Shown: positions 3,283-47,190 of the stretch, piece by piece
Numbering within the stretch: the first letter of the stretch is position 1
Layout of the letters: every line of letters starts with the position of its first letter
Source: a virus
Lineage: Duplodnaviria > Caudoviricetes
Strand: one strand, 5' to 3'
DNA: 55,868 bases
Virus record (IMG/VR): IMGVR_UViG_3300009081_000016
Coordinates: 1 to 55,868 of that record
Made by a program: the position numbers and the translations under genes
The notes under the pieces: generated by a model
Database searches by the model: none
Told to the model about the DNA's origin: nothing
Seen by the model: the letters and a program-made list of their open reading frames with translations, nothing else

Positions 3283-3495
3283 TTATTTGGTGGGCTTGAA
3301 GAACTTTTCAATCAACGAAAGGAAAGAAACATTCGATGCCATTCTTTTCATAGCACGAACCTTAACCGCTGCTGCTCGAATGTCCTGCTTCACCAGATAA
3401 AGACGGTGATTCTGGCGTCTCTCGATGTTCTCCTCCCCCCGCTTCTTCGAGAGACGGTTGTGCCGTCGGCGTTGTTCCGGAGACTGTTTCTTCAT
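3283..3495 (-). CDS. Small basic hypothetical protein
   Basis: TTAGGAG before ATG; Arg/Lys-rich 70 aa. Confidence 0.55.
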   Translation of the reverse strand: MKKQSPEQRRRHNRLSKKRGEENIERRQNHRLYLVKQDIRAAAVKVRAMKRMASNVSFLSLIEKFFKPTK

Positions 3496-3817
3496 TCTTC
3501 TCTCCTAAGGATTTGTGGATTCTGCTAACCATACCCAAACACACAGCCCGATATTCGACAGCTAACGTAGCCATCCTTTTAAGGTCTTCGAGGTTATTTC
3601 GGGCCTCCCCTATAACTCCCCCTTCCATCAATTGTGGTGTCCGCTGAGGAGTTGGAGGGTTTAGGGCGATCTCGATTTCTGACAGGAAACGCACGAAGGG
3701 AATCTCAGAAAAGGTTTTTCCTGTTGCGACGAGGAGTCCCTGTATCAAAGTAAACTCCTCGTCGGTTAGACGTCGGCCAATGGGGCGAGGGTGAAAGGGG
3801 GTAATTATCTTAGTCAT
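3362..3817 (-). CDS. Hypothetical protein
   Basis: GGAG before ATG 3817; coupled to the radical SAM gene. Confidence 0.55.
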   Translation of the reverse strand: MTKIITPFHPRPIGRRLTDEEFTLIQGLLVATGKTFSEIPFVRFLSEIEIALNPPTPQRTPQLMEGGVIGEARNNLEDLKRMATLAVEYRAVCLGMVSRIHKSLGEKNEETVSGTTPTAQPSLEEAGGGEHRETPESPSLSGEAGHSSSSG

Positions 3818-4730
3818 GAGTTTCTCCAAACGGATTGCGAACTAAGCCAACATACGCTCCTCCGGAGTAAGAGCACGCGGCGCAGGGGGAAATCTTAGAT
3901 CGTTCTTTCCGGTACAGAGTTTTCAAGATCGATAGATGGGTTTTCGAATACCAAATTTCCCGGAGACTGTACTCTTCCTCTGTTCCCAGAACGTTCTGTT
4001 CGCGCCAGTCCATACAGCAGATAAGGAATTTACCGGAATAGGTAATGGTGCATTCACGAAAAGGCCGAGTACACATCTTAGCCAACGGCGTAGTTGGTTG
4101 GGGATGACCCAATTCCCGGAGAACAATATTAGATACGTTTCCGGCGTAATTGTGAATTGTACGGGAGCGTCCTGCCTTTACCTTCAAAATGTCAGGAACC
4201 AAATTCAGAACCCGAAGCTTTTCGCCTTTTGGGTATCTCCTATAGGCACTGAATTCCCGGAAGTCGGAAATGGTTATGGTATTCAGTGGGTGGGAGAAGG
4301 AAAGAAGTTCCACCATTCGGTTGTAGGTGTTCCCGTAGCAATCGATGTTCAGAATGTTTATCCCCGATTCGATGATCTGAGTTATGAACGCAGGTTGGGA
4401 ACGAATGGTATCCCCGTTGGTAAACAGGGACATCTGAACAAGGGGGAGAACCTCCCGGAAAGTCTTAATCGCATCCAATAAATGAGGATGCATAAGCGGC
4501 TCCCCTCGCATGGCGAACTCTATTCGTCCTCGTTCATTCAGAACCCGAATCTGATGGGCCATTCGATAAGCCAATTCGAGACTCATGTTCCATTGGGGGG
4601 TAGAAGCAGGTTCGTATGCGGAGGGACAAAATCGGCAACCCCGATCACACCCTCGATGTAGTTCAATCTTGAACGTCGTTGGCCGCGCAATGAGGTTTTC
4701 ATACCGACGTGAAATGGATGACGGTGGCAA
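3810..4730 (-). CDS. Radical SAM protein with C-terminal SPASM/twitch domain
   Basis: CDRGCRFC (CxxxCxxC), RGEPLMHP, FTNG; C-terminal CTRPF...ICCMD...PCAAC; TTG start with AGGAG. Confidence 0.9.
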   Translation of the reverse strand: MPPSSISRRYENLIARPTTFKIELHRGCDRGCRFCPSAYEPASTPQWNMSLELAYRMAHQIRVLNERGRIEFAMRGEPLMHPHLLDAIKTFREVLPLVQMSLFTNGDTIRSQPAFITQIIESGINILNIDCYGNTYNRMVELLSFSHPLNTITISDFREFSAYRRYPKGEKLRVLNLVPDILKVKAGRSRTIHNYAGNVSNIVLRELGHPQPTTPLAKMCTRPFRECTITYSGKFLICCMDWREQNVLGTEEEYSLREIWYSKTHLSILKTLYRKERSKISPCAACSYSGGAYVGLVRNPFGETHD

Positions 4731-11694: not shown

Positions 11695-12037
11695 CTATTC
11701 TAATCTCCCAGATTTCAAATGCAAGACTTCCTTGTGAATCGAGTTTGTTGGTCCAAAAGAACAGATTCAGCTTGGTAAGAGGATCTAATGACCCACAAAG
11801 GGCGTAAGCGTTCAAATCATTAGAGACCATAACGTCTCCGCCGTTGGCAACCAACATGAGTTCTGGTTCGGAATCCCCCGAAACAATCTGAAAGAAGTCA
11901 AATACAAGCGTTCGAATTTCCTTTCCGATAGTGAGTTCGATCCGCTTGCCGTTATTCTTCTGATTCCATTCGAGAAGCGGGAAGAAATGCACTCGAGCCG
12001 GATACCCCGAATTGTTTATTTCGGCGGGCAAGTTCAT
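11678..12037 (-). CDS. Hypothetical protein
   Basis: GGAGG before ATG 12037; overlaps both neighbours. Confidence 0.55.
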   Translation of the reverse strand: MNLPAEINNSGYPARVHFFPLLEWNQKNNGKRIELTIGKEIRTLVFDFFQIVSGDSEPELMLVANGGDVMVSNDLNAYALCGSLDPLTKLNLFFWTNKLDSQGSLAFEIWEIRIDDKRK

Positions 12038-13109
12038 GTGCTTTATCCTCCAATCGAATAAATAAACGTGCGTGCGCATTTGCTCCCAACTGTTCTGAGC
12101 CCAACCCATCCGCCGGGATCAGTTCCTCCTGAGGTCGATAGACGTAGCGCCGCTTGATCCGTCTATCCACCTGGCCCTCCAGCCCTGTGCAGTACTTGGA
12201 GAATTCGCATAGAGAATGTTCTATCGCTCGCACGTCCAAAGTAAGACTAAAGGGGGTTCCGGAAAAGAAACGTTGGAGGAGACACTCCTGGTTACGACAC
12301 AGATAGTAGATAAAATCTTCCGGGGTATCCAGAACTTGGGCAGCCTTATCAGTCAGATGCAAATTAATCATGGCGGAACCCAAAGGAGAGGTGGGCGGAG
12401 CAGGGGAAAATATCCTACGTAGGCCTCTCTTGGCCCCTGGCCCAGCGTTACACCAACTATCCTGTAAATAATCGGGAGTGAAACACCCAAACGGTGTGTA
12501 GGTCAAATCCGTAGCGATCTCGTACCCTATAAAACCACCTATCCCGGGCAGTTTACAGAGCGCCTCCCAGTAGTCTCGTAAATTGGGCTTGTCCAAAAGT
12601 ATATCATACAACCAAGGAAGAGAATTCGAAATTGTGCGAAGGCGTTTTACGGTCTCTCGAATCTTATTTGATCCTGGCCCTCCCGCCCGTATAATATAGG
12701 CTGAACCAAAAACAGGATCCGTATCCGCTATTTCTCGGAGACCCTCTTCGAAGCGTTTCCACCCAGCGGCACCCCAATTTTTGTTTACATAAGGATATCC
12801 CCATGGTAAATTCATGAGGGTCGTAGGACGGTTTATTAGGCGATACGCAATTATATTGAATACCAACTGGGCGTCGTAGGTTGGAGAGTACCTAATGATC
12901 TTTTCAAACAGCCAAACAGTTCCGCGATCGAGGTCTCGGAATACGTTGGTGAATCGATAGTCCCGAAGAATTGGATCATCCGTAAGAACGGTTTTGTGTT
13001 CGAGAAAACGCCGAACCCACATCTGATACCGTTCTTGAATCCAATACCAGAACAATCTCATGGCCACTGGGTTGATGGCCACAACGGTTTTCTTATTGGG
13101 AGTCGGCAT
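11952..13109 (-). CDS. aGPT-Pplase1 family (alpha-glutamyl/putrescinyl-thymine pathway, amino acid:DNA transferase-like)
   Basis: ER...RR...TDDPILRDYRFTNVFRDLDRG, HhH LPGIGGFIGYEIATDL, NAGPGAKRGL, IEHSLCEFSKY. Confidence 0.88.
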   Translation of the reverse strand: MPTPNKKTVVAINPVAMRLFWYWIQERYQMWVRRFLEHKTVLTDDPILRDYRFTNVFRDLDRGTVWLFEKIIRYSPTYDAQLVFNIIAYRLINRPTTLMNLPWGYPYVNKNWGAAGWKRFEEGLREIADTDPVFGSAYIIRAGGPGSNKIRETVKRLRTISNSLPWLYDILLDKPNLRDYWEALCKLPGIGGFIGYEIATDLTYTPFGCFTPDYLQDSWCNAGPGAKRGLRRIFSPAPPTSPLGSAMINLHLTDKAAQVLDTPEDFIYYLCRNQECLLQRFFSGTPFSLTLDVRAIEHSLCEFSKYCTGLEGQVDRRIKRRYVYRPQEELIPADGLGSEQLGANAHARLFIRLEDKAHELARRNKQFGVSGSSAFLPASRMESEE

Positions 13110-13596
13110 CTGATCTATCCCCTAATATGGAAATAACAGAAGTCAGTTCCCGGAGCAGATACGGGAGCAGCGCATGCGGATCGATGGGGGTGGGTTCTGG
13201 AACGATCCGCTCGTGGCGGTATTTTCTTACAGCCAGTTGTATGGCTTCGGCCAGACGATCTTCCACCAAACCGTTATCCGACTCGTTACCGGATCCACGT
13301 GAGGATGCTACGGCCCCGATCAAGGCGTATCCTGCGAGGTCAGTCCAAGGGTCTTCCTGGAGTGCAGATGGTGCGTGGGCAATACGCATGATCTTATCGA
13401 ATATTCTACCTAGTATAAAGGAGTCCCGCATTCGTTCGGGAGGAATTCCTTGGGGCCACAACAGAGAAAAGAATCGACCCACCACAAACGCACTACTTCC
13501 ATAGGAAGCATTTTTGTGGCCCAACAATTTTCCCAGAGAATCCCCCCGACTTAGAAATTCTTCGGATAGGGTCTTGAAGTTTTTAGGCTGGGCCAT
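13093..13596 (-). CDS. Nucleotide-modification-associated domain protein (Nmad1/DUF1599-like)
   Basis: KNASYGSS...RIFDKIMRI...EDPWTDLAGYALI; GGAG before ATG 13596. Confidence 0.7.
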   Translation of the reverse strand: MAQPKNFKTLSEEFLSRGDSLGKLLGHKNASYGSSAFVVGRFFSLLWPQGIPPERMRDSFILGRIFDKIMRIAHAPSALQEDPWTDLAGYALIGAVASSRGSGNESDNGLVEDRLAEAIQLAVRKYRHERIVPEPTPIDPHALLPYLLRELTSVISILGDRSDADSQ

Positions 13597-14320
13597 CGAA
13601 TAGACTCCCATTAAATATCTGAAGACGAATTTCCTGATACAAAGTTGTTTTAATTTCCATGGGTATTCTCCCTTTTTCATCATGAATAAAGGGAGCCAAG
13701 ATAAAACCACAAAGGGTTTCAAAGTTCGATCGGCCATTCCCGTCGGGTTTATCATTCCTGCAAAAAATACAGGGATTTAAACTGTCCTCGGGCAAACGCC
13801 GTGAGGCCAATTCTTCACACAAACTATTTGTGGTGATCTTCAAAACGTCAGCCATTTCCGGATCGGGGTTCCCTTTCTTCAGTTCCTGAGTGGCGTAAAG
13901 GTGCAGTTCGAGACGATCGAAGAACTTGACAACTCGAAACTCCAAACTGCTTAGACCCAAATCAGGGTGCGCCTCATTTACCCTATCCATGGAGGTGACT
14001 TCCGCCGAATACAGTTCTTCCCGAAATTTCTCGGAAGCAAAATTTTTGAAGGGATAGGGAATATCCCCTGAAAAGGCTTCAGGCCAATCGTGCTTAAGAA
14101 TACCACGAGATACTCTTACCTGATCCACACAAAAGCAGGGCCAAAACATTTCGTGCAGGAGCAGCGCAAATAACGTGTGCTCCGCTACGCTACGCTTCTC
14201 GTAGGTAAACATTAGACCGCAGTGGTTGATTCGCGATAACCGTTCATAGCTATTATATTTACGATGGCAAGGAATCGCGGCCTCTGTAAGTTGATACAGT
14301 CTATCATTGCTCTGGAACAT
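13583..14320 (-). CDS. HD-domain 5'-deoxynucleotidase (YfbR-like)
   Basis: SVAEHT, LKHDWPEAFSGDIPYPFK, VKFFDRLE; AAGGAG before ATG 14320. Confidence 0.88.
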   Translation of the reverse strand: MFQSNDRLYQLTEAAIPCHRKYNSYERLSRINHCGLMFTYEKRSVAEHTLFALLLHEMFWPCFCVDQVRVSRGILKHDWPEAFSGDIPYPFKNFASEKFREELYSAEVTSMDRVNEAHPDLGLSSLEFRVVKFFDRLELHLYATQELKKGNPDPEMADVLKITTNSLCEELASRRLPEDSLNPCIFCRNDKPDGNGRSNFETLCGFILAPFIHDEKGRIPMEIKTTLYQEIRLQIFNGSLFDGPA

Positions 14321-15425
14321 CGGATACACTCCTTGTGTTAGTCCAATCAACGTAGTGAGTCTGATTAGTCTTTATAACGGGAGATCGAATTCCGGCTAAT
14401 AGTTCTTGGACAGCCGCATTCTCCCCCCCTCTCCGCAATAGTTGGTGTATCTGAAATACCGAAACCCAGTCGTATAATTGCGCTGGAAATATTGACTCAA
14501 TGTCAACGGGGGTAAGTGGGTTGGGGCAATCGGGAACGCCCCCATCTCCCTGGGCCATCGCGCTGCCTACATTGTGCAAGCGCTCTACGTCCGATAAGCA
14601 AAGGGGTGAGGTAGACCCTCCGAATTCTCGAAGCGCAGCCGGGAACCAAAGTCCGCCAACGGGCATCCCGTTTTTCTCAAGAAGGTTTTTGGCCCGTTTC
14701 CAATGCCGTTCATAAAGATGTAAACAGCTAACGAAATGCGTATACTTGTGTGGGCGAACTTTCATTGTTCGAGTGGGGTCTTCCCGCATTATCATATCGG
14801 ATAGAACCTCCATCAACAATGACCACGTAAACAGATTGACGTTGCTGCCCCAAAGAATATCCATGGAACGCTGAAATATTTTCAGCGAGAGGAGAAAGTT
14901 TGGTTGCCCCCCGTTCCATTCGTCTGGTTCAAGAAGGACATGAAGAGCAAGATTGCAGGGAAGATCTTTAGTATGGCCCCGAGCGGTCAGATCGGCGGGA
15001 TGGGCTATCAATATAAATGCCTGGCGAGACAACGGATTATGGGCCAGCAAGTTGGCAACTTCCAGCAGTTGATCCGTCTTCATAATGTCTCCAATTGGGA
15101 ATGCTCTAATACGAGGACCGTATGCTGCCCTCCAAGCCTTACCGTTATCGCTGAAGTCCTCAGCCCGAGGAAGGTATACCTTCAACGAGGATATATAATT
15201 CTCGCCAAAAAGAACCCAACAGGCCTCGAACATGGTGGCCGCGAGACAGTCCCTACGATCCTGCAGATCCAGAACACGGAAGGAAGGTTCAGACAGCTGA
15301 ATAACCACGTCTTCCAATTCGAGAGACGCCTGATCTCGGCGTTCTATCTTCTTTCCTTCCTTGAATAACTTGGTCAGTCCGGCCAATAGAAAATCGCTGT
15401 TACCAACGGCGGTAATTAAATGCAT
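14304..15425 (-). CDS. Thymidylate synthase-family enzyme, probably dUMP hydroxymethylase
   Basis: AYGPR, DQL, SRQA, KDLPCN (catalytic Cys), QRSMDILWGSNVN (Asn at the dUMP-specificity position), LHLYERH; start reassigned to ATG 15425. Confidence 0.85.
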   Translation of the reverse strand: MHLITAVGNSDFLLAGLTKLFKEGKKIERRDQASLELEDVVIQLSEPSFRVLDLQDRRDCLAATMFEACWVLFGENYISSLKVYLPRAEDFSDNGKAWRAAYGPRIRAFPIGDIMKTDQLLEVANLLAHNPLSRQAFILIAHPADLTARGHTKDLPCNLALHVLLEPDEWNGGQPNFLLSLKIFQRSMDILWGSNVNLFTWSLLMEVLSDMIMREDPTRTMKVRPHKYTHFVSCLHLYERHWKRAKNLLEKNGMPVGGLWFPAALREFGGSTSPLCLSDVERLHNVGSAMAQGDGGVPDCPNPLTPVDIESIFPAQLYDWVSVFQIHQLLRRGGENAAVQELLAGIRSPVIKTNQTHYVDWTNTRSVSDVPEQ

Positions 15426-15458
15426 GGAAGAATCCTTTATCGAAATTTTACGGATACT

Positions 15459-15514
15459 AAAAAGACCCCAGGTGGTCGAATCCGGCATTAAGACTCGACC
15501 AACCTGGGGGGGTC
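15459..15514 (-). terminator. Long hairpin followed by U-tract (intrinsic terminator)
   Basis: Minus strand gacccc(ccc)aggttggtcga...tcgaccacctggggtc followed by ttttt. Confidence 0.7.
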
Positions 15515-15680
15515 ATTCGCGGTGGCTCGCCGCGACCTTAGGAGGACTTGACCCTTTAAATTAGGGGAAGGCAGAACGTCAATCTATCCCAGATAAGTGG
15601 CGCCATTCCCTATCCGGTATTCACTAAAAGCAATTACGCTTTCGGTCAATTATGTTCGGACTTCTACCGAAACCTTCCCC
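15459..15680 (-). ncRNA. Candidate structured sRNA carrying an anti-Shine-Dalgarno segment
   Basis: ggggaagg/ccttcccc closing stem (15673-15680 / 15564-15571), internal hairpins, unpaired aagtcctcctaagg (15549-15536), hairpin, terminator; no credible ORF. Confidence 0.5.
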
Positions 15681-15683
15681 GAG

Positions 15684-15778
15684 AACGGGAGGCGGGATTC
15701 GAACCCGCACGCACCATGATCAGTACAGAGGGGAAACGAAGAAAACCCTCTCGCGTCTACCATTTCCGCCACTCCCGT
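15684..15778 (-). tRNA. tRNA-Leu-like (class II) element with aberrant 15-nt anticodon loop; no encoded CCA
   Basis: ACGGGAG-TG-GCGGAAATGGTAGACGC-G-AGAGG[gttttcttcgtttcc]CCTCT-long variable arm-GCGGG TTCGAAT CCCGC-CTCCCGT-T. Confidence 0.8.
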
Positions 15779-15802
15779 TACCTACGCGATGGCCGGAACG
15801 AA

Positions 15803-16711
15803 TTATTCCGGGTCTTCCCAACCCGCCTTCTCGTTGATGGCGGTGATGATGCGGAGACGATTCACCTGACGGGTCTTGGACTCTTTCCATGTCACGCCCA
15901 TCTTCTTGGCGAACTTCTCGAGAGCCTCGTCGTCGGCGAGCTCGTCCTTCAGCATCTTCTTGAACTTCGCCTGGGTGATTTCCTCGTCATCGTCTCCGGA
16001 CTTTTTCTTCGGGGGTTTCTCCTCCGTACCGCCGTTCTCTTCACCCTTGGTTCGGTTCCGGATGTCCTTCTCGTCTACGTCCTTCAGGGCGACGGCGTCT
16101 TCCTCCTCTTCCCCCGCGATCAGAACGTGGAGTTTCTTCTTGATCTTGACGATCTTGGCTTTCACCCAGTTGTCGTCTTCATCCCGCACCCAGACCTTGT
16201 CGTCTTCCTCGAGATCATCGAGGTCGTCGATCTTCGTGCCCGGAGCGGCGGACTTCTTTTCCTTGGGGGGTTTGTCTTCCCCTTCATCCGCGTTCTTGCC
16301 CTTCTTGGGCTTGGCTTCCACGCCGACCGTAAGGGTCTCGGAGTCTTCATCCCAACCGAGAGCGCACGTACCGTTGTCCGCCAGCTGTTCTGAGATCTCT
16401 CCGATGGCCAACGCAACGGCGGCTACGAGGGCGGAGTCGAGTTCTTTTTTCTTTGTCATGGATTTGGTTTCCTGCGTAATGGTTTGCTTTTGGGGCTGAA
16501 CGAGAAAGATTGGAGAGTTTTTCTTGAGACCGCTCCCAACTTCAACTCCCTCGGATTCAATGTACTTCAAAAGTTGGGGGGAGAAGCCACGGGTGCTTCC
16601 ATAGTTACCCAGTGTGTAGTTGATCACCTGTTTGCGTGCCCGATCATCGGGACACAGTTCATCGAGTTCACTCAGGTTCAACTCGTCCATAAGTTTGCTT
16701 AGGTCATACAC
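15803..16711 (-). CDS. Highly charged K/E/D-rich protein with Tudor/SH3-like and C-terminal HeH-like segments; second in-frame start at 16459
   Basis: LEEDDKVWVRDEDDNWVKAKIVKI; C-terminal ALEKFAKKMGV...RLRIITAI; TTAGGAGG before GTG 16711. Confidence 0.7.
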   Translation of the reverse strand: MYDLSKLMDELNLSELDELCPDDRARKQVINYTLGNYGSTRGFSPQLLKYIESEGVEVGSGLKKNSPIFLVQPQKQTITQETKSMTKKKELDSALVAAVALAIGEISEQLADNGTCALGWDEDSETLTVGVEAKPKKGKNADEGEDKPPKEKKSAAPGTKIDDLDDLEEDDKVWVRDEDDNWVKAKIVKIKKKLHVLIAGEEEEDAVALKDVDEKDIRNRTKGEENGGTEEKPPKKKSGDDDEEITQAKFKKMLKDELADDEALEKFAKKMGVTWKESKTRQVNRLRIITAINEKAGWEDPE

Positions 16712-16720
16712 AAATCCCTC

Positions 16721-17284
16721 CTAAGGTTTAAAGCCTTCTGTCCCTTCATCCAGTGAAACGTTCCTGCCAAACCGTTGTTCATAGTCCTTTCTTAAACGCT
16801 TGAACGCTGCCCGTCTTTCCCGATTACTTTTTCCTACAATAGAAGTAAGAATAGACCAACGGAATCCCCCTATCCGGATCTCCATCAACAACTGCCGTCG
16901 TTCCGGATTTACAACCCCCCGCATAAAACGAGCAGCAACTAAGTTATCGGTGTCGAATGCAACTTCAAAAAGACGGTCAAGCAATTCGTCCTTATCGATG
17001 CCCACCAGTAGGTCGTCTTCAAAATCAGAAACAACCAAATCAATATCATCTTCTATAGACTGAAATCTATTACGCGTACGTAACGATCTTCGGTAATCCC
17101 TACAAGAATTTAGTATGATTTTACCCGCCATACGAAAGAAGTCATTCCCGTATTTCGTATAGGCATGCCATGAAGATATAAGAATGATCTGATAAAGTTC
17201 GGCCCAATCACTTCGAGCGTATGCTCGAGCGGCAGCCCGTAATCGGTGATCGTTCTCTGATAACCAAGTATCCCAACGCTTCAT
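16721..17284 (-). CDS. ECF-like sigma factor (region 2)
   Basis: RLRAAARAY...AELYQIILISSW...AGKIILNSCRDYRRS. Confidence 0.65.
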   Translation of the reverse strand: MKRWDTWLSENDHRLRAAARAYARSDWAELYQIILISSWHAYTKYGNDFFRMAGKIILNSCRDYRRSLRTRNRFQSIEDDIDLVVSDFEDDLLVGIDKDELLDRLFEVAFDTDNLVAARFMRGVVNPERRQLLMEIRIGGFRWSILTSIVGKSNRERRAAFKRLRKDYEQRFGRNVSLDEGTEGFKP

Positions 17285-17970
17285 TTTCCCCCCCCAAACC
17301 TTTTTCGTCTAATCGTAAGAATCTTTTCGGGAGAGGACTTCTTTGTAGAACGCGCCACTCTATTCCCCCGATCAAAGAATTTGGAGTAGAGGCGTTCAAG
17401 ACGTAGCGTATTATCATCGTCCGGAACTACGATTTCTTCCCCTCGCTTAATCGCGCTCCAAAAGGCTTTGGCTTCCTTCCTTTCCTCACTTCGCTTTGCT
17501 CGGCGCTCCTGCCGATCCAAACGTTCCTTCTTGATACGGGCGCAGGTTTCCCAAGCTGCGTCCACTTCGTCCATTGACAGGGTAGGAGCCACGGCGGGAC
17601 AGCGCTGAGCTATGTATTTGGGCTTAGTAATTCCGAACCATTCGGCAGACAGCAGACCTCTCTGATGCTTTAATTCAAGGAAGCCTATAAAGCGGCCATC
17701 CTCCAAAACTTGGTCACTGGAAACAGTCAGCAACTTTTCCGCGTGACCCACCCGTTCGAAGGTGCATATCCATCGGGGAACAGAGGGGTCCTCATCACCC
17801 ACCAAACGTTCCGTAAGTAACCATTTTGTGTGGTGCAACCCAATCGCAACCTTCTCCCACTCCGGACAACGATCCGGTTCAGCCAACTCCAGCGTAACGA
17901 CATCCCCTCGCCTGAGCCAGAGTATTTGTGCTCGAACGAGGAATAGCCCTTTCCTCTCGTACCAATTCAT
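17281..17970 (-). CDS. Hypothetical early protein
   Basis: TTAGGAGG RBS; 229 aa. Confidence 0.75.
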   Translation of the reverse strand: MNWYERKGLFLVRAQILWLRRGDVVTLELAEPDRCPEWEKVAIGLHHTKWLLTERLVGDEDPSVPRWICTFERVGHAEKLLTVSSDQVLEDGRFIGFLELKHQRGLLSAEWFGITKPKYIAQRCPAVAPTLSMDEVDAAWETCARIKKERLDRQERRAKRSEERKEAKAFWSAIKRGEEIVVPDDDNTLRLERLYSKFFDRGNRVARSTKKSSPEKILTIRRKRFGGGK

Positions 17971-17990
17971 AATGTCCTCCTAAGAAATAA

Positions 17991-18059
17991 ACAGAACTCC
18001 CCCCGTGGGTGGGGTTCCATTAGTCGGACTGGGGAAAATCCGATTCGGGGGGAGTCTGT
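17991..18059 (-). ncRNA. Structured intergenic element (multi-branch stem with C-rich loops)
   Basis: Outer stem acagactccccccg / cggggggagttctgt; inner tcgga-ttttccccag-tccga. Confidence 0.5.
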
Positions 18060-18083
18060 AATTGCAAGAGCCAATTTTGGGGT

Positions 18084-18659
18084 TTACCCTTCGAGGAGTT
18101 TCTCCAACAGGGAGATGATGCGACTCTGCTGCTTCTCGAGATTTTGAGTCGTCTCATATATCCGACGAACCGCTTCGTTCTTGCCCACACGTCCGGTCTT
18201 TTCTTCCTTGTTTTTCCCATAACCGAAGTGCTTCTTGAGGGCACCCAGCAGGAACATATGTTCTACCGACTCATTTCCGGTGGACTTTGGGCAGGGTATG
18301 GAGTTCTTCTCGCAGAGTTTACGCATCGCGGCGTTGCTCATAGCCTTTAGAGACTTTAGAGAAGGACGATCCCCTTCTTCCTGTTCTTCAACATCAGGAC
18401 GTTCCTTTTCAACAACCGCAGCCTTCTTTTTCTTCTTGTCTTTCTTGTCGGGAAGATGCATGTTCGTTTCTCCTTTCAAATTCCGTATGGTTCGTATTTC
18501 TTTTAGAAGCGGATTGTAACGTTCGGGCTGATGGTAGTCTTCGGCCCACCTCTCCCGTAGGTTGGGGGCAATGGCGGATTTCTGCAACGCTTTAACCTGC
18601 AGTGCTTCCTCCACCCGACGTGCCGCACGGTTCATCCGAGATTCGATCAATATCTTCAT
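18084..18659 (-). CDS. Lys-rich protein with HeH/Rho-N-like segment and C-terminal coiled coil; strong internal start at 18461
   Basis: SLKAMSNAAMRKLCEKNSI; AAAGGAG before ATG 18461; ATGA coupling at 18659. Confidence 0.65.
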   Translation of the reverse strand: MKILIESRMNRAARRVEEALQVKALQKSAIAPNLRERWAEDYHQPERYNPLLKEIRTIRNLKGETNMHLPDKKDKKKKKAAVVEKERPDVEEQEEGDRPSLKSLKAMSNAAMRKLCEKNSIPCPKSTGNESVEHMFLLGALKKHFGYGKNKEEKTGRVGKNEAVRRIYETTQNLEKQQSRIISLLEKLLEG

Positions 18660-18946
18660 GAGACTCTTGTAAGATCTCCCTGTGAGGAGACATTCCAAAC
18701 GGGATCGGCGCTGTTGGACGCCAAAAAGTTGTAGCCCGATTCCATTGTCCGAAGGATACTAACCATTTCGGGACGTGCCTTGCTTAAGGAACTCCTTTCA
18801 TACCACAACGTAGAACACCCGAAGTATTCCACCTCTTCGGAGGGGGGAACTCCCAAAATCTTTTGGGCTATCCATGAGTGAAAGAGGCGCAGGGTAATGT
18901 TGAAGAATCCTCGGTGGCTTGTTATGGCAACCAATTCGTAAGTCAT
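18656..18946 (-). CDS. Hypothetical early protein
   Basis: ATGA-coupled at both ends. Confidence 0.65.
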   Translation of the reverse strand: MTYELVAITSHRGFFNITLRLFHSWIAQKILGVPPSEEVEYFGCSTLWYERSSLSKARPEMVSILRTMESGYNFLASNSADPVWNVSSQGDLTRVS

Positions 18947-19359
18947 AGAGACGTCCCTTCCTTCGTCGGCGAAGAAAACTTTGAATCGCCGTCACAAATG
19001 TCGAGTAGAACACGCAGTTGCAAATTGGGGCGGTCACTCTCATATACCACAATCGGAACCTCAGACCAGTGGACATCGTCGGCGTCCCAATACCGCCGAG
19101 TGGTTCCCTCAACTTCCTGGAGGTATAGGGTATGGGTGTAGCGGGACATTGATATACCGCTTACCCGGAAACCCGCCTCCGTAGCCTTCTTATATAGGTA
19201 CTCAATCTGTCGGCATACGGTATGGTCTTCGTACGACTTCTCGTTTAACCTCCCGGCCAAGATAATCGCGTCCGGATCAGATCGGCAAGTGTACTCCTCC
19301 AAATCTCCAGGGATGCTGTACACGTTACGACCTCGGGCCTCGAACTTTTGATTGGACAT
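18943..19359 (-). CDS. Hypothetical early protein (downstream of hammerhead 1)
   Basis: TTAGGAGG RBS before ATG. Confidence 0.75.
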   Translation of the reverse strand: MSNQKFEARGRNVYSIPGDLEEYTCRSDPDAIILAGRLNEKSYEDHTVCRQIEYLYKKATEAGFRVSGISMSRYTHTLYLQEVEGTTRRYWDADDVHWSEVPIVVYESDRPNLQLRVLLDICDGDSKFSSPTKEGTSL

Positions 19360-19384
19360 AATAGAATCCTCCTAAAGTGTTCCC

Positions 19385-19463
19385 TGGCTTGCCATCATCG
19401 GTGCCTACGTAGCCAACGTAGACAGAAGAAAGAGGTGGTCACGGCACCTCTTTCGTTTCGGCA
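19385..19463 (-). ncRNA. Type II hammerhead ribozyme with pseudoknot (HHR-1)
   Basis: tgcc GAAA c gaaagaggtg-loop-cacctctttc t TC | tgtctacgt tggct acgtaggca CCGATGA t ggca agcca; loop I tggct pairs with 3' tail agcca. Confidence 0.85.
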
Positions 19464-19484
19464 TAGGGGAGGAAGAGAAAAGGA

Positions 19485-19799
19485 TCAGTCGGCGTTTGCC
19501 TTCAGTTCCTTGCGGTATTCCCGCACCTCGCGGACGGTGTCGGAAAGATAGGCAATCACGACCTTCGCGGACTGGTGCATCCGGCACTCGTTGCGCTTCG
19601 CATGAAACTTGATGGCCTTCTTCCAGTCGCCGGAATCAACCAAGCCGATTTCCGCCTTGTCCAGCGGATAGCGGTCTACCAGCTTGACGCGTTCGACGTT
19701 CTTTTCGGCTTTGGCTTTCTTCTTGGCTTTCTTCTTGCCGCCGTTGGAGGTTTCGTCTTCTTCGTGACGATGCTTTTTCGCTACTTTGATTTTCGCCAT
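19485..19799 (-). CDS. Small Lys-rich basic protein
   Basis: MAKIKVAKK...KKKAKKKAK; GGGAG before ATG 19799. Confidence 0.75.
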   Translation of the reverse strand: MAKIKVAKKHRHEEDETSNGGKKKAKKKAKAEKNVERVKLVDRYPLDKAEIGLVDSGDWKKAIKFHAKRNECRMHQSAKVVIAYLSDTVREVREYRKELKANAD

Positions 19800-19856
19800 G
19801 ATCGGATCTCCCATGATTTGGGTTTGTGGTTTTCCGTAATAACGGAGGGTATTGTT

Positions 19857-20276
19857 TTAGGCGTGCAACAGACCACCGCCAGTAGCGGCAGTATCAGACA
19901 TAACTTCAGGTATCTTGATCGCGACCTCCTTCGGAGAGGCCTGAACCTTCCAAGTGAGCAGACCCCAAACGGAGAGTTCGCTGCCTTCTGTCTCGGACGT
20001 TACCTGAATTCCGTAGGCTTCGGCCACCGTGGCCGCAGGATCAAAACCTGTGTATTCGTGCTCGATTGCCTTGCGGATCTTGGTGGAACTGAGCGAAGTA
20101 GGAATGCCTTCGTGGCCCTCGATCGTGGATGTAAAACCGCTTATCAGTTCCTTAAACGTAAGATCGGCATCGAGCGAAACAGAGAATAGCGATTCTCCCG
20201 GTCGGTTGTGGTGGTCGGTAAGATTATCGGCCCCACAAACGTCAATTTGTTTGAATGAACAGCCATAGGTTGGCAT
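19857..20276 (-). CDS. Hypothetical early protein
   Basis: CCTTAGGAGGACTT-ATG leader. Confidence 0.75.
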   Translation of the reverse strand: MPTYGCSFKQIDVCGADNLTDHHNRPGESLFSVSLDADLTFKELISGFTSTIEGHEGIPTSLSSTKIRKAIEHEYTGFDPAATVAEAYGIQVTSETEGSELSVWGLLTWKVQASPKEVAIKIPEVMSDTAATGGGLLHA

Positions 20277-20300
20277 AAGTCCTCCTAAGGATTGTTAAAC

Positions 20301-20714
20301 CTAAATCACAGTTCGCGGGTGTATCAGGTGATTGTCTTGGATCTGGTGGTGGAGAAACACTGTGTGAGAACCGTCTCCGGTAATAGGGAGGTAGATGTCC
20401 AACGAGTCCATGGAAGCATCCATTTCGTCGGTGTATCGATAGTAGTCCAGATCCCGAAACGACCCTCCCCACTCGAGCATAAGTTCGGAAGTGTTTTGCG
20501 AGTGCAGATAGACACGAACCAATTCTCCCAAACAAGTAACGGTCAGCTGGTAGGCGGAATCCCAAACTTGCATAATAAAACCGTTGGGGGAGCGTCCAGT
20601 GAGCGGCAAATTAATCACCCGCAAAGCGGGGGAGAAGGATCCATGAGTGAACGATCGTTTCAGAATCTTCTTGAAATCGTTCACCGTCTTGGGTTTGGGC
20701 AGTACCTTAATCAT
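20301..20714 (-). CDS. Hypothetical early protein
   Basis: AAAGGAG RBS; ATGA coupling. Confidence 0.7.
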   Translation of the reverse strand: MIKVLPKPKTVNDFKKILKRSFTHGSFSPALRVINLPLTGRSPNGFIMQVWDSAYQLTVTCLGELVRVYLHSQNTSELMLEWGGSFRDLDYYRYTDEMDASMDSLDIYLPITGDGSHTVFLHHQIQDNHLIHPRTVI

Positions 20715-21295
20715 CGGTAGCTCCTTTCAACAAAGGAAACAAAGCCGAAGAAGAAAACGACGTCCTCCGTCGGTTCCTTATCGTTTGGATCGTCTTTCGC
20801 CAACAGAACCTGCCCAACGTTTGGATCGAGTGCCAACCAATCGGTAATGGCGTGTTCCGCCTCATCCAATTCGATCCCTGCCTCCAGAGCAGAAACCATC
20901 AACGCATCGTTATTGGAGAGAAGCGATTCTACCATCTCTCGTTGCGTGGTATTATTGTTCAGATAGATGAAACTGAATCCAGGGAGTTCTACCGAAGGAA
21001 ACTGCGAGATGGGGCTAATCCCCAGCGTAACGAAGACAACCCTTCGGGGAGGTCTCCCGAAGATAATTGGTTTCGTACCATCGCAGAGGTTGTTTCCGAT
21101 GATCGAAAGGTTGCATAAATAATTGGTAACGGTTTTGAAGGATGGGTCGTTACGGATGACCCGGTCTTCCTCAACGTAGACTATGTTCGGTTCGCTATCT
21201 TGGGGGAGGTCCCCCAAAACATAACCACCAATCTCTGGTCTCCACAAGCAGCCATTCTCGGTCAACCAGTTTTTTACTTGTCGGGAAGTAAGCAT
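20711..21295 (-). CDS. Hypothetical early protein (downstream of hammerhead 2)
   Basis: TTAGGAGG RBS; first gene after the large non-coding region. Confidence 0.75.
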   Translation of the reverse strand: MLTSRQVKNWLTENGCLWRPEIGGYVLGDLPQDSEPNIVYVEEDRVIRNDPSFKTVTNYLCNLSIIGNNLCDGTKPIIFGRPPRRVVFVTLGISPISQFPSVELPGFSFIYLNNNTTQREMVESLLSNNDALMVSALEAGIELDEAEHAITDWLALDPNVGQVLLAKDDPNDKEPTEDVVFFFGFVSFVERSYR

Positions 21296-21326
21296 GACAG
21301 AATCCTCCTAAGGAGTTGAAACCGTG

Positions 21327-21405
21327 GGCTTGTCATCATCGGTGTGTAGGGAGCCACCCTAACACAGAACGCCAGGTTGCGGGAACAATACCTGGCGTTT
21401 TCGAC
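21327..21405 (-). ncRNA. Type II hammerhead ribozyme with pseudoknot (HHR-2)
   Basis: gtc GAAA acgccaggt-loop-acctggcgt TC | tgtgt(t)aggg tggct ccctacaca CCGATGA t gac aagcc. Confidence 0.88.
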
Positions 21406-22020
21406 GTCGAAAAGGTAGCGGCCGACATCTCGCTTCCGGTCGTGGGCTGATTACCTGTGAACTCCAGTTTTAAACCAGAACAAACCGTTTTCTGAACAGA
21501 CCTTTCGCGTCCCATTGAATTCGCCCACTCCCTCCGCAAGTTTCTCAACTTGGGGTCGGCTAATGAGGGCATGAGAAAGAGCAAGGCGTGGTTTTCGCGA
21601 TAACCGCGAGAGACGCTACCGGGATTCAGCGGCACAGACGGGGGTCCCTTTCCAAAGGGGGTCAACCGTCGTCATGTCAGAGAACCGTAACCTTTACGCA
21701 TTCAATTTACAAAGAAAAAACCGCTTTCGCAAGAACTTTCTGGGGTTTCTTAGGGCTACTAAGTTAAGCAAAACCGGAAACTTAGGGGTAAAAGCACCTG
21801 AAAAGGAGAGGCGTAACAACCCCCCTTTGGGCCCCTTTTCGGGGGGTATTAAGTTACGCAAAAAAAGAAAGTTAGCCAAAATCGTCCTTTAAAGCCTCTT
21901 CAGGGCGTCCCCAGCTGGGGGGGTATAAAACCCCTAACGGCCGGAATACCCCCCGTAGACGACCCCCCAGGAGGGTAAAACCCCCGATAACGGGGTCTTC
22001 ATGAAGTAAAACGTCTGAAA

Positions 22021-22108
22021 AGGGGGGGTTGCTCACCCCCCTATAATATGTATTATCTATTATATAGAGTTATACATATTTAAGAATAGCTAACGCTATT
22101 CTTAAATA
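22021..22108. other. Candidate replication origin: AT-rich tract with tandem inverted repeats
   Basis: Perfect 14-bp IR tatttaagaatagc-taac-gctattcttaaata (22077-22108), aatatgtat/atacatatt IR, agggggg/cccccct; immediately downstream of primase. Confidence 0.5.
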
Positions 22109-22119
22109 GCTCTCGCGTC

Positions 22120-23031
22120 TTACGACGGCGAGAGCCTAAGACGAAGAGAGGAAATTCTGGAAAGGGTTTTAGCCGAAGAAATTTGTGTAACGAGTTGTGC
22201 TATATCCGAACTTCCGGGATCCTTTCCTGGGCATTCCGCGATACGTACAGAAGAGGCTCCTCGATTCTTAAGTTGTTCTCCCAACCAAATAGAGTCTCTA
22301 AGAGCATCTTGGTCCAAGCAGATAATAAATTCTTTTCTGGGAAAAGTGGAAACCAGAAGATCCAACTGTGCCCCACTGGGTCTCTTCCCTAAAAGACCCA
22401 CAAAGTGGGGGAACACACAATCGAAGGCTCCTTCCACTAAAACCGGAACAAGCGGGTGTAGATACACAGCTGCCTGTAGATTATAAAGCGCTCGATCCTT
22501 GCTCATCTTGGGGTTTAGGTACTTTGGTTCAAGACCGGATACAATGGATCGGGCGGTGTGATAAACCAAATTATTCTGGTCATCGAAGCAGGGGAGTATA
22601 ACACGGTTGTACAATCGGCGATTGAACGAATACCCAACCCTCCGATCAGCGATCATCTCGTCTGTCCACCCCCGAATGTGCAGATAGTTCCGAACTCGCT
22701 CTGCATATCGTAACTCCCCCTCTTTCTGCTTCCCCAATTCGGTAAAGCCTGCTATTGCTACGTCTGGTGATGTCTCTTTCGTTTCTTGTTGCCGAGTTTT
22801 TTCGTGGACATAGATGCTGCCGTCGTATTCCCGGAGCATCTTAGAAAGCGTTGTAGAGTATCCACAACGGAAACAATGGCACACGCCTAAGTCATCATTT
22901 ATAGAAAGGTGGAAACTCGTATCGGGGCTAAGACCCCTAAGAGTACAGAATGGGCAGCTAACGCCATACTCTGTTCCATTCTTCCCGCTACTCTCCTTAT
23001 ACATCCCAAACTTTCTGAGATATTCCTTCAC
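22120..23031 (-). CDS. DNA primase (CHC2 zinc finger + TOPRIM)
   Basis: CPFC...H...CHCFRCG, RVILP, PKYLNP, VLVEGAFD, CLDQD. Confidence 0.93.
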   Translation of the reverse strand: MKEYLRKFGMYKESSGKNGTEYGVSCPFCTLRGLSPDTSFHLSINDDLGVCHCFRCGYSTTLSKMLREYDGSIYVHEKTRQQETKETSPDVAIAGFTELGKQKEGELRYAERVRNYLHIRGWTDEMIADRRVGYSFNRRLYNRVILPCFDDQNNLVYHTARSIVSGLEPKYLNPKMSKDRALYNLQAAVYLHPLVPVLVEGAFDCVFPHFVGLLGKRPSGAQLDLLVSTFPRKEFIICLDQDALRDSIWLGEQLKNRGASSVRIAECPGKDPGSSDIAQLVTQISSAKTLSRISSLRLRLSPS

Positions 23032-26517: not shown

Positions 26518-26654
26518 GGTTTTAGCCTATTTTAGGGGGGGTTTTCACTTAGTGAAACGTTCGAAGATTAAAAACGAGTCAGACGACTAAAAACAGCTGC
26601 GTTGGGGCCTTAAACGGTGCCCAAAAAGTTTATACCCTGCTTTGTTTCAAAAAA

Positions 26655-44272: not shown

Positions 44273-46726
44273 CTATCTCTTCTGAATTATATAGCCCTGC
44301 ATGTAGATGCGCGGTCTTTTTGCTTCTACGCCTTCACTTGAATTGAAATACACATATCGGGTTGCGGCTGGATACTCTGGGGAAAGTACGGCAAGACCAA
44401 AGTTCTTCGTAGAGTCCGCTACCATTTCGTTAATCGCATATCCTAATCCTCCAAACCATACCACTCCTGTATCTGACGCGCTTATAACCTGTGTTCCATA
44501 ATTCTGTGATCCATAACGAGGATCACACCATACATCATTAGGGGCATCATACCCTGTCCAGTTCCAACACACCTCGGTTGCAGTGGCGACATTGGACGTT
44601 CCGTATCCATCTCCCTCTTTCCATAAACAGTTTGTGACATGAACTTCGATGAGGGGCGTCCCGACCACCTTGAAAATATAGCCACCAAACTTTGCATCAT
44701 TGATAACAATTCCTCGGTTATGCAACAGTGCAAAACTATTATAGAAAAATCCTATGTACTGTGCGGGGCCAGTTGTTGAGTACCCAACAGTAATTGAATC
44801 CCTCGCCCCCCATTCAGAGGTAGGGGCAGAGGATGCAATGTGGGCATCCTCCGAGAAATACATCGTCGTGTCCCAGTAGACACGCTGAGAGTCAGAGTGT
44901 AGGGCAACTATGTAGTAACCCGAATATGATAAACTTGGCCAGTTAGCCAGTTGAACATTCTGCCGTGAGCTAAATGCCGCGCTCCGATTAGACGTAGAAT
45001 CCGACTTCTTAATAATAAGGCCGAAATTTGTGAGGGGGTCATTTACAAGCGATTGCACCAAGGACGTAATTGTCCATGAGTACCGATTGGTATCATTTGC
45101 AATTGCAACTGTATCATTTGCGTTCCCACTACACATCGTATTCATTGGGCGATCCCACAAACTATGACCGCGATCTATGGTGTCTCCAGTCACGGACAAT
45201 GAATCAAATTTTGACCATCCTCTCCAGTCCCAGCAAGCCCCAGCAGTATCAATAGCTCCCATTTGGGTGCCCTCCACCCAATCTGATGCTGCCTTAAACA
45301 CGCTCACGTTGGTAGGATCTGTTACGGATACAGCACTTGCACCAAATAAACCCTCTGTAATAACGATACAACAGTCTTCATAAGCCAATGGGAAATATAC
45401 CTGACTCTGCATAGTATCAGAGTTAACACCCGCATAGAGAGCAGTGCTGATACCATAATTACGAGTAGTGTAATTCTTGCTAATGTGGGCATCAGCCGTA
45501 GGTGAAGCCGTTGCAGCAAAGGGGATAAACTTTACGCTGTCTGACAACTCTACCGTGAAGGGTGCAGAAGTATCGCACAAGAAATGATGGGCAGCACTCA
45601 TGAGCCGAATACGAGCACTATCTGCACTCACCGAGGGTTTCCACAGATACACCCCGTTATTCGGAGTGCTCTGCGTGATGAGTTCCCAATTCCCCGATGG
45701 GTAATTCCGATCCCACTCGATACGCACATGACCCGCAAAATTAGCTGTACTCCACTTGATCGTGTCCTCGTTGGCAACGTAGATTGTTGCACCACTACCA
45801 GGTTTCGTAAGTGCAAACAACGTGGAAGGATGAATTCCAACCAATGCCCGATTTAATTCTGGAATGGAGTCGGCGGGAAGGTTGTTAACATACCACCATC
45901 CCGTCCGATCCGCATGATTTATCTCTAACCCATAATTAAAATGTAGTTGGTTTCTACCGTTATAGACTCGCCAACCATCACATACTACTGCATGGTCGTT
46001 AATACGATATAGTATGGGACGACCCAAATTAAGCTGCGCTTGCAATATTTCAAACCAAGCGGTTGAGTCATAATCACTGCGTAGTAAACGACGTGCTCCG
46101 CTTGCATAGCCAAAATGTCTGTTAATTACTTTCCCCGCCAAACTATCCCACATCGCCCCTGCGTAGGAGGACGACCTTATGGTGCCATAGTCCATTTCTA
46201 TGGCTACGCCAATTTCGTAACACAACTCTGCAACGGCGGCTCTCTGGTCAGCGGAGGCTATGGCTGTTAAATCGCCTGTTCCCCATATGTTGTATCTTCC
46301 GAGTATCTCCTCCCAATCATACTCATCCGAGAAGGTTGCTGATAAGTTCTGTCCCTCAGTCTCACCCGCACCCGTACTATCCCCATCCCAAGCGTAGGTA
46401 TGCGATCCAAAACCACTGGCAGGATATTGCCAATACTCCATAATCATCCCAAGTGCTGTGGCTACACAACCCGCTCTACAGCGTGTGCCACCAACCCCCG
46501 TCGGACAATCCTCGTTCCACGGTGAATATTGATCCCAATATATGTCCCCTAATAACGGTTTAACTTGACTCTTAACTGGAGCCGGTTCTGGATCGGAAAT
46601 GATATTACCCGCTGTTCGCTTCGTTGGGTTTTCGCCCCACCGAATTCGCGCCCAATCCCAATCAGTGTCTTGAGCAAAAGACACCGACTGAAAAAGAACA
46701 AAGAGAAGTAAAAATACTCTAATCAT
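44273..46726 (-). CDS. Secreted peptidase C10 (streptopain/SpeB-like) with Ig-like and two DNRLRE-like domains
   Basis: Signal peptide (MIRVFLLL...VSFA-Q); WDQYSPWN, AGCVATA (Cys), AELCYEIGVAIEMDYG, HAVVCDG (His), HFNYG; DAHI...NYG/EWG...F.S.(Q/E)...P repeated twice. Confidence 0.88.
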   Translation of the reverse strand: MIRVFLLLFVLFQSVSFAQDTDWDWARIRWGENPTKRTAGNIISDPEPAPVKSQVKPLLGDIYWDQYSPWNEDCPTGVGGTRCRAGCVATALGMIMEYWQYPASGFGSHTYAWDGDSTGAGETEGQNLSATFSDEYDWEEILGRYNIWGTGDLTAIASADQRAAVAELCYEIGVAIEMDYGTIRSSSYAGAMWDSLAGKVINRHFGYASGARRLLRSDYDSTAWFEILQAQLNLGRPILYRINDHAVVCDGWRVYNGRNQLHFNYGLEINHADRTGWWYVNNLPADSIPELNRALVGIHPSTLFALTKPGSGATIYVANEDTIKWSTANFAGHVRIEWDRNYPSGNWELITQSTPNNGVYLWKPSVSADSARIRLMSAAHHFLCDTSAPFTVELSDSVKFIPFAATASPTADAHISKNYTTRNYGISTALYAGVNSDTMQSQVYFPLAYEDCCIVITEGLFGASAVSVTDPTNVSVFKAASDWVEGTQMGAIDTAGACWDWRGWSKFDSLSVTGDTIDRGHSLWDRPMNTMCSGNANDTVAIANDTNRYSWTITSLVQSLVNDPLTNFGLIIKKSDSTSNRSAAFSSRQNVQLANWPSLSYSGYYIVALHSDSQRVYWDTTMYFSEDAHIASSAPTSEWGARDSITVGYSTTGPAQYIGFFYNSFALLHNRGIVINDAKFGGYIFKVVGTPLIEVHVTNCLWKEGDGYGTSNVATATEVCWNWTGYDAPNDVWCDPRYGSQNYGTQVISASDTGVVWFGGLGYAINEMVADSTKNFGLAVLSPEYPAATRYVYFNSSEGVEAKRPRIYMQGYIIQKR

Positions 46727-47190
46727 TGAACTGCTCCAGTATGCACTTCAAACTTAGGAGGATTACTAATCGGAGCTACCCACAGACAGTCTGCACGAAA
46801 CGGTACCCAAAAGGACGTACCGGGTGCCATAGTAATTGGTGACCCGCAGGAAGGGACGAGTCGAATCATGTAGGTAGAAGTGGTATCGGTGTTTCTCATA
46901 ACAAACCCCGACTGGGTTCCGGTGTTGGAATTCGATAACTTCATTCCCCTTCCCTCTTCGGGGATTCCCATCAAGGTATCAACTTTCATGGAATCAAATA
47001 CCGCACCCGTAAGCCCAAGAGGGCGGTATCTGTTTGCTACTTTATCCAACCCGTATTGAACGGAAACAGGATTTCCGTTGTCATCAATGGGCGTTATCGC
47101 TCCGGTGTTGCTGGGTTGCGCTATGGCATTCGACAAGCCGAAAACAACCAGAAACACAACCATAATGCGGAAAATGATTTGGGTTCTCAT
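46723..47190 (-). CDS. Signal-peptide-bearing hypothetical protein
   Basis: MRTQIIFRIMVVFLVVFGLSNAIA-Q. Confidence 0.7.
   Translation of the reverse strand: MRTQIIFRIMVVFLVVFGLSNAIAQPSNTGAITPIDDNGNPVSVQYGLDKVANRYRPLGLTGAVFDSMKVDTLMGIPEEGRGMKLSNSNTGTQSGFVMRNTDTTSTYMIRLVPSCGSPITMAPGTSFWVPFRADCLWVAPISNPPKFEVHTGAVQ

Follow-up and report, generated by a model that had tools for sequence, protein, structure and literature searches.

To our knowledge, descriptions of small RNAs from virulent phages are few. The T4 RNAs called band C and band D are small RNAs of a virulent phage that have had no known function since the 1970s, and sRNA2 of PAK_P3, likewise without an established function, is an abundant small RNA that a virulent phage encodes in the intergenic region between two phage transfer RNA (tRNA) genes (PMC4933390). 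The c4 RNA of phages P1 and P7 is excised by RNase P, has a loop that occludes a ribosome-binding site (RBS), and pairs in trans with mRNA (PMC5320573, PMC12197685). In Escherichia coli, the glyW-cysT-leuZ tRNA operon has a 3' external transcribed spacer (3'ETS) that gives rise to the base-pairing RNA 3'ETS-leuZ (bioRxiv 10.1101/2021.04.25.441314). Here, we analyzed a noncoding segment of approximately 225 nt on the minus strand (15682-15459) of IMG/VR virus record IMGVR_UViG_3300009081_000016. The record, which we refer to as the window, is a whole phage genome and was analyzed at its full length (55,868 bp, G+C content 48.7%, estimated completeness 100, 123-bp direct terminal repeat). The segment starts directly after the discriminator base of a tRNA-Leu-like element and is therefore that element's 3' trailer; it carries a 14-nt candidate anti-RBS complementary to the RBSs of five genes. 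We have high confidence that the tRNA-trailer RNA is real, that it is structured and capped by a terminator, and that it closes an operon.

By origin, 3'ETS-leuZ would be the closest known system. As in the published account of that RNA, the trailer is the stretch between the last tRNA of its unit and a Rho-independent terminator, and base pairing is proposed for it. According to the same account, 3'ETS-leuZ differs in being bacterial, in sponging small RNAs (RyhB and RybB) rather than pairing with the RBSs of mRNAs, in being released by RNase E, and in being Hfq-dependent. By mechanism, c4 would be the closest known system if the mechanism that we propose below holds, since, as the cited descriptions present it, c4 is a phage RNA cut from a longer transcript by a tRNA-processing enzyme and acting by RBS occlusion, features that are only proposed for the trailer. 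On those descriptions, c4 has two loops, approximately 77 nt, and one immunity gene as its target, whereas the trailer has one pairing segment, approximately 225 nt, and five targets with a shared RBS. Unlike c4, the trailer would be released beside a complete tRNA-like gene, and a PHROGs scan of 58 open reading frames (ORFs) showed no lysogeny or immunity genes in the phage genome. The Rfam model of C4 antisense RNA has no match over the trailer, at either E ≤ 10 or the gathering score.

The T4 and PAK_P3 RNAs differ from the candidate in that the cited account, as far as it covers them, describes no anti-RBS role for them; it does report a T-loop-like 11-mer in PAK_P3 sRNA2 (PMC4933390). Neither the T4 band C and D RNAs nor PAK_P3 sRNA2 shows any sequence relation to the trailer by blastn in 50,697 phage records, or any relation in Rfam. 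The T4 band C and D RNAs are encoded in the T4 tRNA cluster. T4 also provides a precedent at the level of proteins: the endoribonuclease RegB and the translational repressor RegA shut off a class of phage mRNAs at their Shine-Dalgarno (SD) or start regions. They differ from the trailer in being proteins rather than RNA.

The trailer consists of three parts: domain 1, domain 2, and a terminator. With the adjoining element and the pairing segment, the features of the locus are as follows.

15684-15778, minus strand: tRNA-Leu-like element (ARAGORN; Rfam tRNA model 39.5 bits against a gathering score of 29)
15682-15459, minus strand: trailer, noncoding
15564..15680, minus strand: trailer domain 1, a 117-nt five-way junction
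15510..15554, minus strand: trailer domain 2, a loose three-way junction
15549-15536, minus strand: anti-RBS 14-mer AAGTCCTCCTAAGG, complementary to the shared CCUUAGGAGGA-type leaders
15459..15509, minus strand: intrinsic terminator, a 44-nt hairpin (15509-15466) followed by the U-tract UCUUUUU (15465-15459)

The whole trailer has a minimum free energy (MFE) of -94.1 kcal/mol (z score -4.29), and none of 200 shuffled sequences folded as well on the minus strand. Folding of the plus strand is weaker (-87.6 kcal/mol, z score -3.56), and its hairpin is not followed by a T-run. Domain 1 (MFE -43.9 kcal/mol, z score -3.73, one of 200 shuffles as good) consists of four hairpins enclosed by an 8-bp helix that pairs 15680-15673 with 15571-15564. 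The palindrome GGCGCC (15604-15599, minus strand) lies in an 11-nt hairpin loop of this domain, which in our fold could enable loop-loop (kissing) dimerization of the trailer RNA. Domain 2 is closed by a 6-bp helix and holds, besides a GC hairpin (15534-15518), a 3-bp mini-hairpin in which the anti-RBS lies; its z score is only -0.76, so this part is weakly structured and accessible. The terminator hairpin (-31.2 kcal/mol, z score -6.43) is the strongest in the genome, with -20.6 kcal/mol for the runner-up among all sites on both strands where a hairpin precedes a T-run, and together with its U-tract it has the makeup of an intrinsic terminator. A pattern-based terminator scan missed the site at 15509-15459, and our guess is that the bulged stem falls outside its pattern. 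The promoter scan found nothing in the trailer region.

The tRNA-like element lies 24 nt from the stop codon of gene 15803..16711. Its acceptor stem, D arm, long variable arm, and T arm are all intact; its anticodon loop has 13 nt where 7 are normal, so that it is not a canonical tRNA. ARAGORN offered two calls for the element: Glu(ttc), in which the stem is mismatched, and Lys(ttt), which requires a 6-nt 'intron'. CCA is not encoded, and the discriminator position is a U. Judged by these features, the element is probably unable to decode, and the aberrant anticodon loop suggests that it is kept for processing instead. Within its acceptor and D-arm part, 25 nt are identical to a stretch overlapping the first 25 nt of a genomic actinobacterial tRNA-Leu(UAG), an identity to one tRNA that is too thin to assign a host. 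We consider it likely that the element is a signal for processing by RNase P and RNase Z, through which the trailer would be released. Because the trailer follows the tRNA-like gene directly and runs to an intrinsic terminator, it has the layout of a tRNA 3'ETS. An earlier reading of the window, made from the letters alone (the sequence-only reading), had overlooked the adjoining tRNA-like gene, which alters how the RNA would arise.

Parts of the region 13000-22000 are contained in 12 public sequencing runs, two of which are metatranscriptome libraries, and we compared four runs over 14300-21800. Among the four deepest pieces listed for RNA library X9 is a mismatch-free contig of 151 nt at depth 27.2; it covers 15565-15715 and connects domain 1 of the trailer with the 3' part of the tRNA-like gene. 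Over 30 bins of the compared region, X9 covers 17, very unevenly, and DNA run X4 covers all 30. The contig is a hint that the junction of tRNA-like gene and trailer is present in RNA, although contigs show no strand, ends, or level, and DNA may occur in RNA libraries. All four runs also contain contigs that match nothing but a 38-nt piece of gene 15803..16711 (15926-15963), with unrelated flanks and, in the one such contig listed (from X12), five mismatches; some other abundant organism probably has a short look-alike of this piece.

The anti-RBS lies between the 6-bp closing helix of domain 2 and the GC hairpin, 26 nt upstream of the terminator hairpin. Its complements in the leaders of five genes, with the pairing energies from the ranking described below, are as follows.

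16717..16727, minus strand: RBS of gene 15803..16711, 11-nt complement, -12.2 kcal/mol
17974..17984, minus strand: RBS of gene 17281..17970, 11-nt complement, -14.9 kcal/mol
19367..19375, minus strand: RBS of gene 18943..19359, 9-nt complement, -10.4 kcal/mol
20277..20290, minus strand: RBS and spacer of gene 19857..20276, 14/14 complement that extends to position -1, -14.8 kcal/mol
21303..21313, minus strand: RBS of gene 20711..21295, 11-nt complement, -10.5 kcal/mol

All these coordinates and match lengths (14, 11, 11, 11, and 9 nt), first put forward in the sequence-only reading, were reproduced when we recomputed them. The 8-mer TTAGGAGG occurs nine times in the genome. Its five minus-strand copies are exactly the five RBSs, all between 16.7 and 21.3 kb and each 4 to 8 nt ahead of a start codon. 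Of the four plus-strand copies, one is at 15538 within the trailer region, so the minus-strand trailer RNA carries its complement. The complement covers the columns that the five leaders share or nearly share (CCTTAGGAGGA plus Y, T). Likeness to the best-matching leader (gene 19857..20276) extends precisely to the borders of the conserved RBS block and no further, and such sharp limits fit selection for pairing better than a duplication scar. Among the 64 genes of the genome, six of the 10 strongest SDs fall in the block of ORFans that contains the five targets. Another plus-strand copy of TTAGGAGG stands 7 nt before an ATG and a 40-codon ORF (23701-23840) antisense to a DnaB-like helicase gene; this is the sole plus-strand copy with gene-like spacing, though it probably arose by chance.

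Opening the anti-RBS costs 3.1 kcal/mol for the 14-mer and 2.2 kcal/mol for its 8-nt core. The cost was unchanged (2.2 to 3.1 kcal/mol) when the tRNA-like gene and up to approximately 320 nt upstream (to 16000) were included, and it rose to 5.8 kcal/mol once the RBS at 16717-16727 was included, because the anti-RBS and that RBS then pair in cis. We ranked all start regions (-40 to +20) as targets with a home-made model that combines the hybrid energy of an 18-nt window with the opening energies of both partners. Whole-length duplex folding had been tried for the ranking and was replaced by these windows because it gave long spurious hybrids. The five TTAGGAGG leaders took ranks 1 to 5 of 64 (-14.9, -14.8, -12.2, -10.5, and -10.4 kcal/mol), with rank 6 at -9.2 kcal/mol. 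The trailer thus has the unpaired segment that is characteristic of a trans-acting anti-RBS small RNA, with complements of 9 to 14 nt to five RBSs that are also its five best-ranked targets. That a single seed matches five RBSs is the distinctive trait of the trailer.

These observations can be joined in a model. The trailer would be the last part of a minus-strand transcription unit that carries the ORFan block (approximately 22.0 to 15.46 kb), and transcription would end at the terminator. RNase P and RNase Z-type activity require only acceptor and T arms, so these enzymes would cut at the tRNA-like element and could free the trailer of approximately 225 nt from the polycistronic mRNA. The terminator hairpin would shield the 3' end of the trailer and allow it to outlive the mRNA. 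Its exposed CCUCCUAAGG-type segment would then pair, in trans or (before processing) in cis, with the extended CCUUAGGAGGA RBSs of the five genes of the same operon. Pairing would hide the SD, as far as position -1 for gene 19857..20276, and compete with 30S binding. Translation of the five genes would fall as trailer RNA accumulates, which would amount to delayed negative feedback inside the operon.

We regard such a regulatory anti-RBS function as plausible, though less likely than not. The picture as a whole is speculative, and we hold it to be doubtful: in a lytic-type phage, a private extended RBS (CCUUAGGAGGA) for a block of its genes, a decoding-dead tRNA-Leu mimic used only as an RNase P/Z signal, and a stable RNA that imitates the ribosomal anti-SD for just this private site would together time the translational shut-off of their own operon, as an RNA counterpart of T4 RegA and RegB. 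If the trailer does repress the five genes by way of their shared RBS, a base-pairing RNA derived from a tRNA trailer and RBS occlusion of the c4 type would be joined in a new combination, the locus would offer a simple model of operon-autonomous translational timing, and the aberrant tRNA-Leu-like element would be a tRNA gene retained for RNA processing instead of decoding.

An end-of-operon RNA that shuts off early translation was the central proposal of the sequence-only reading, and it survives in part. The RNA is noncoding and structured, it occupies the very end of the transcription unit of the ORFan block, and it ends in the strongest terminator of the genome; its pairing energies are not outliers. 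The word 'early' is not supported; the block is placed between primase and helicase genes on one side and nucleotide-metabolism and polymerase genes on the other. The suggestion that two of the targets are led by hammerhead ribozymes was not confirmed: Rfam gave no hammerhead at E ≤ 10 in 14500-22500, and CUGANGA, the hammerhead core motif, was present in none of six leader stretches.

Besides the missing support for early timing, several further results weigh against a regulatory role. The energy model is our own approximation and not IntaRNA. When we applied the same model to 16 other sense-strand noncoding gaps (113 to 473 nt) as a natural null, their best energies ranged from -9.7 to -15.9 kcal/mol, and three of the 16 reached -15.1 to -15.9 kcal/mol with one start region or another. 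The candidate is therefore not set apart by energy alone. In eight of the 16 gaps, C-runs gave the best pairing, with the RBS of gene 16721..17284, a G-run, as the partner. The 4,339 nt of sense-strand gaps contain 10 copies of CCUCC. The motif CCUCCUAA has four sense-strand copies where approximately 0.7 to 0.9 are expected from base composition; three of these lie inside genes, among them the copy at 46754, which can pair over 12/12 positions with the leader of gene 20711..21295 yet has no obvious role. (This sense, minus-strand anti-RBS, at 46753-46765, lies inside the end of gene 46723..47190, approximately 30 nt before the gene 44273..46726 for an 817-amino-acid protein.) Stoichiometry is unfavorable as well, with one trailer against five targets per transcript, and the model assigns no role to the five-way junction of domain 1, which may contribute to stability or bind a protein.

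The RNA contigs cover only the 5' part of the trailer, and 15304-15554 has no contig from X9 or X12, although such holes prove nothing. The strains in the runs are nearly identical to the genome, with a single change (G>A at 19274) in 7.5 kb. The X4 contig 14810-15604 has no variant in the part of the trailer that it covers (15459-15604, the 3' two-thirds), which leaves covariation unreadable. Searches for relatives were barren. A blastn comparison with 50,697 phage records returned no trailer homologue, only tRNA T-arm matches of 26 to 28 nt in 186 records. A 21-mer of the trailer was not found in IMG/VR, and single-protein scans of IMG/VR with the thymidylate-synthase-like protein, the DNA polymerase, and a 302-amino-acid ORFan found no relative; for this last ORF, which adjoins the tRNA-like gene, the only match among 3,604 candidates was itself. 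Among 80 distant loci with a thymidylate-synthase-like gene (25 to 39% identity), blastn and nhmmer found no trailer, and the best E value (0.76) was on the T arm. The nearest homologues of the thymidylate-synthase-like protein are 38 to 40% identical, and a search of metagenome contigs with this protein found no relative. A pattern made of a T-loop, 133 to 163 nt, and the anti-RBS had no match in IMG/VR; in metagenome contigs it had eight, all of them unrelated tRNAs with chance motifs. The phage is thus an orphan in the collections searched, and because relatives were not found, comparative support in the form of covariation is out of reach.

The trailer might instead be a structural module at the end of the operon, providing a processing site in the tRNA-like element, a stabilizing fold, and an insulating terminator, with the complementarity to RBSs fortuitous and of no regulatory effect. 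Such a module would insulate the ORFan block from the genes for thymidine modification and replication. Most of the folding signal is accounted for by the terminator and domain 1. The length of the match is also at chance level, as the sequence-only reading had cautioned, with six exact 14-mers elsewhere among the 25 listed of 34 inverted pairs of at least 14 nt. The null gaps with equal energies, the frequent CCUCC, and the gene-internal copies of CCUCCUAA point the same way. We also built a profile of 17 columns from the five RBS modules and scanned the genome with it. An equally good site was present on either strand of seven of 100 first-order Markov genomes, so the excess over chance is modest unless placement in the approximately 4.3 kb of sense-strand noncoding sequence is also counted. 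Against a fortuitous match, the plus-strand site in the trailer (15534-15550, 17.6 bits) is the best in the genome outside the training set by approximately 5 bits, the next being 12.8 bits at 46750. This site falls within the 4% of the both-strand sequence that is sense-strand noncoding, and the anti-RBS is located in a junction where it is accessible, with a terminator directly after it, and shares its operon with all five leaders. We consider a purely structural role only slightly less likely than regulation, and chance complementarity a serious rival. If the trailer has no regulatory function, it is a warning that anti-SD complementarity and good predicted energies arise readily in noncoding phage RNA.

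A second alternative is that the plus-strand copy is an orphan RBS cassette, that is, a functionless scar of recombination or template switching among duplicated modules that has yet to decay. The block does show duplication of leader modules: gene 18943..19359 and gene 20711..21295 have leaders (19357-19410 and 21293-21345, minus strand) with approximately 45 nt in common, including RBS and spacer. The plus-strand copy also looks like a full RBS, yet the reading frame that it heads is TTG ACC CTT TAA (15548-15559), an ORF of three codons with 2 nt between SD and TTG, as had been observed before. Against a scar, no flank is shared with the closest leader, that of gene 19857..20276, and the match ends at the block borders. 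In addition, the terminator and its U-tract function on the minus strand only, and noncoding sequence is scarce in this genome because minus-strand ORFs cover 92% of it. We therefore view the scar as improbable.

The trailer might also be read as a cis-acting leader, a riboswitch or attenuator of the thymidylate-synthase-like and thymidine-hypermodification genes with domain 1 as the aptamer and the terminator as the switch. A multi-helix junction of approximately 120 nt with a terminator does lie 34 nt before the start codon of gene 14304..15425, which is part of a nucleotide-modification cluster. This explanation is very unlikely, since no Rfam family was found over the trailer on either strand at E ≤ 10, the 5' strand of the terminator has no strong alternative partner when its 3' strand is withheld (and thus no antiterminator), and the adjoining upstream tRNA-like gene suits a trailer more than a leader. 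Less credible still is that TTAGGAGG(A) acts in the DNA, as a protein-binding or recombination site, with 15536-15549 and 20277-20290 flanking an invertible 4.7-kb segment or marking operators. The nine copies of the 8-mer on both strands do exceed the approximately 1.7 expected (2 x 55868 / 4^8); five of them, however, are minus-strand copies at SD-like spacing, no joints or inversions were seen in four runs over 14300-21800, and no recombinase was recognized among the 58 ORFs scanned with PHROGs. Finally, a mini-ORF or antisense transcript encoded on the plus strand is scarcely believable despite the perfect SD-like motif there, given that the three-codon ORF excludes a plus-strand gene, the SD-to-TTG spacing is 2 nt, no plus-strand T-run follows the hairpin, the 64 minus-strand ORFs extend over 92% of the genome, and the promoter scan was empty in the region.

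The 64 ORFs that we kept (cutoff of at least 45 codons) follow one another on the minus strand. Transcription meets genes for terminase, portal, head, and tail first (approximately 50 to 26 kb) and then the helicases and primase (26 to 22 kb). Next comes the ORFan block (21.7 to 15.8 kb), in which none of the 11 ORFs has a PHROG match. Downstream of the trailer are the thymidylate-synthase-like gene (14304-15425) and genes for an HD phosphohydrolase, a 5-hmdU DNA kinase, a DNA polymerase, SSB, and an exonuclease. The PHROGs scan of 58 ORFs recognized neither an integrase nor a repressor nor an RNA polymerase. Pfam, run on 13 ORFs of the block, gave only two subthreshold matches (PUA_4 and Myosin_N), both on one ORF. 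No function was found for the target genes by PHROGs, Pfam, homologue search, or Atlas, where two of them had no usable match.

Directly beyond the trailer, the interval 11952-15425 on the minus strand is a cluster of the thymidine-hypermodification type.

14304-15425, minus strand: thymidylate-synthase/dUMP-hydroxymethylase-like protein with a C-terminal extension of approximately 110 amino acids past the Pfam domain
13583-14350, minus strand: HD/YfbR-like phosphohydrolase
11952-13109, minus strand: 5-hmdU DNA kinase (PF18723, E value 1e-46)

From this gene content, the DNA of the phage is probably base-modified. An origin of replication was considered and rejected, as the GC skew has no inflection.

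Upstream of the ORFan block lies a 454-nt noncoding region (21666-22119, minus strand) with an AT-rich stretch, a terminator-like hairpin with C/G runs at approximately 22045-22015, and several additional G-run/C-run hairpins. Rfam gives only weak subthreshold matches there (His_leader and CssrA). This region is likely to be the boundary and promoter region of the transcription unit that ends at 15459. A search for promoter motifs by enrichment of 9-mers in gaps returned C-run and G-run motifs only, with nothing usable near the trailer.

Two further observations concern motifs elsewhere in the genome. An intergenic motif that reads GTGAAAACCCCC(C/T)CT on the minus strand is repeated at 95-109, 26534-26548, and 55840-55854 (plus-strand coordinates), which places it in the terminal repeat and upstream of the helicase gene at 26.1 kb, and a role as a phage promoter or in packaging is conceivable. 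At 3489-3512 on the minus strand, CCTTAGGAGA is a sixth near-copy of the RBS module and is followed after 5 nt by an ATG and a 70-codon ORF. This ORF overlaps the longer ORF 3362..3829, and the gene call at this place may need revision.

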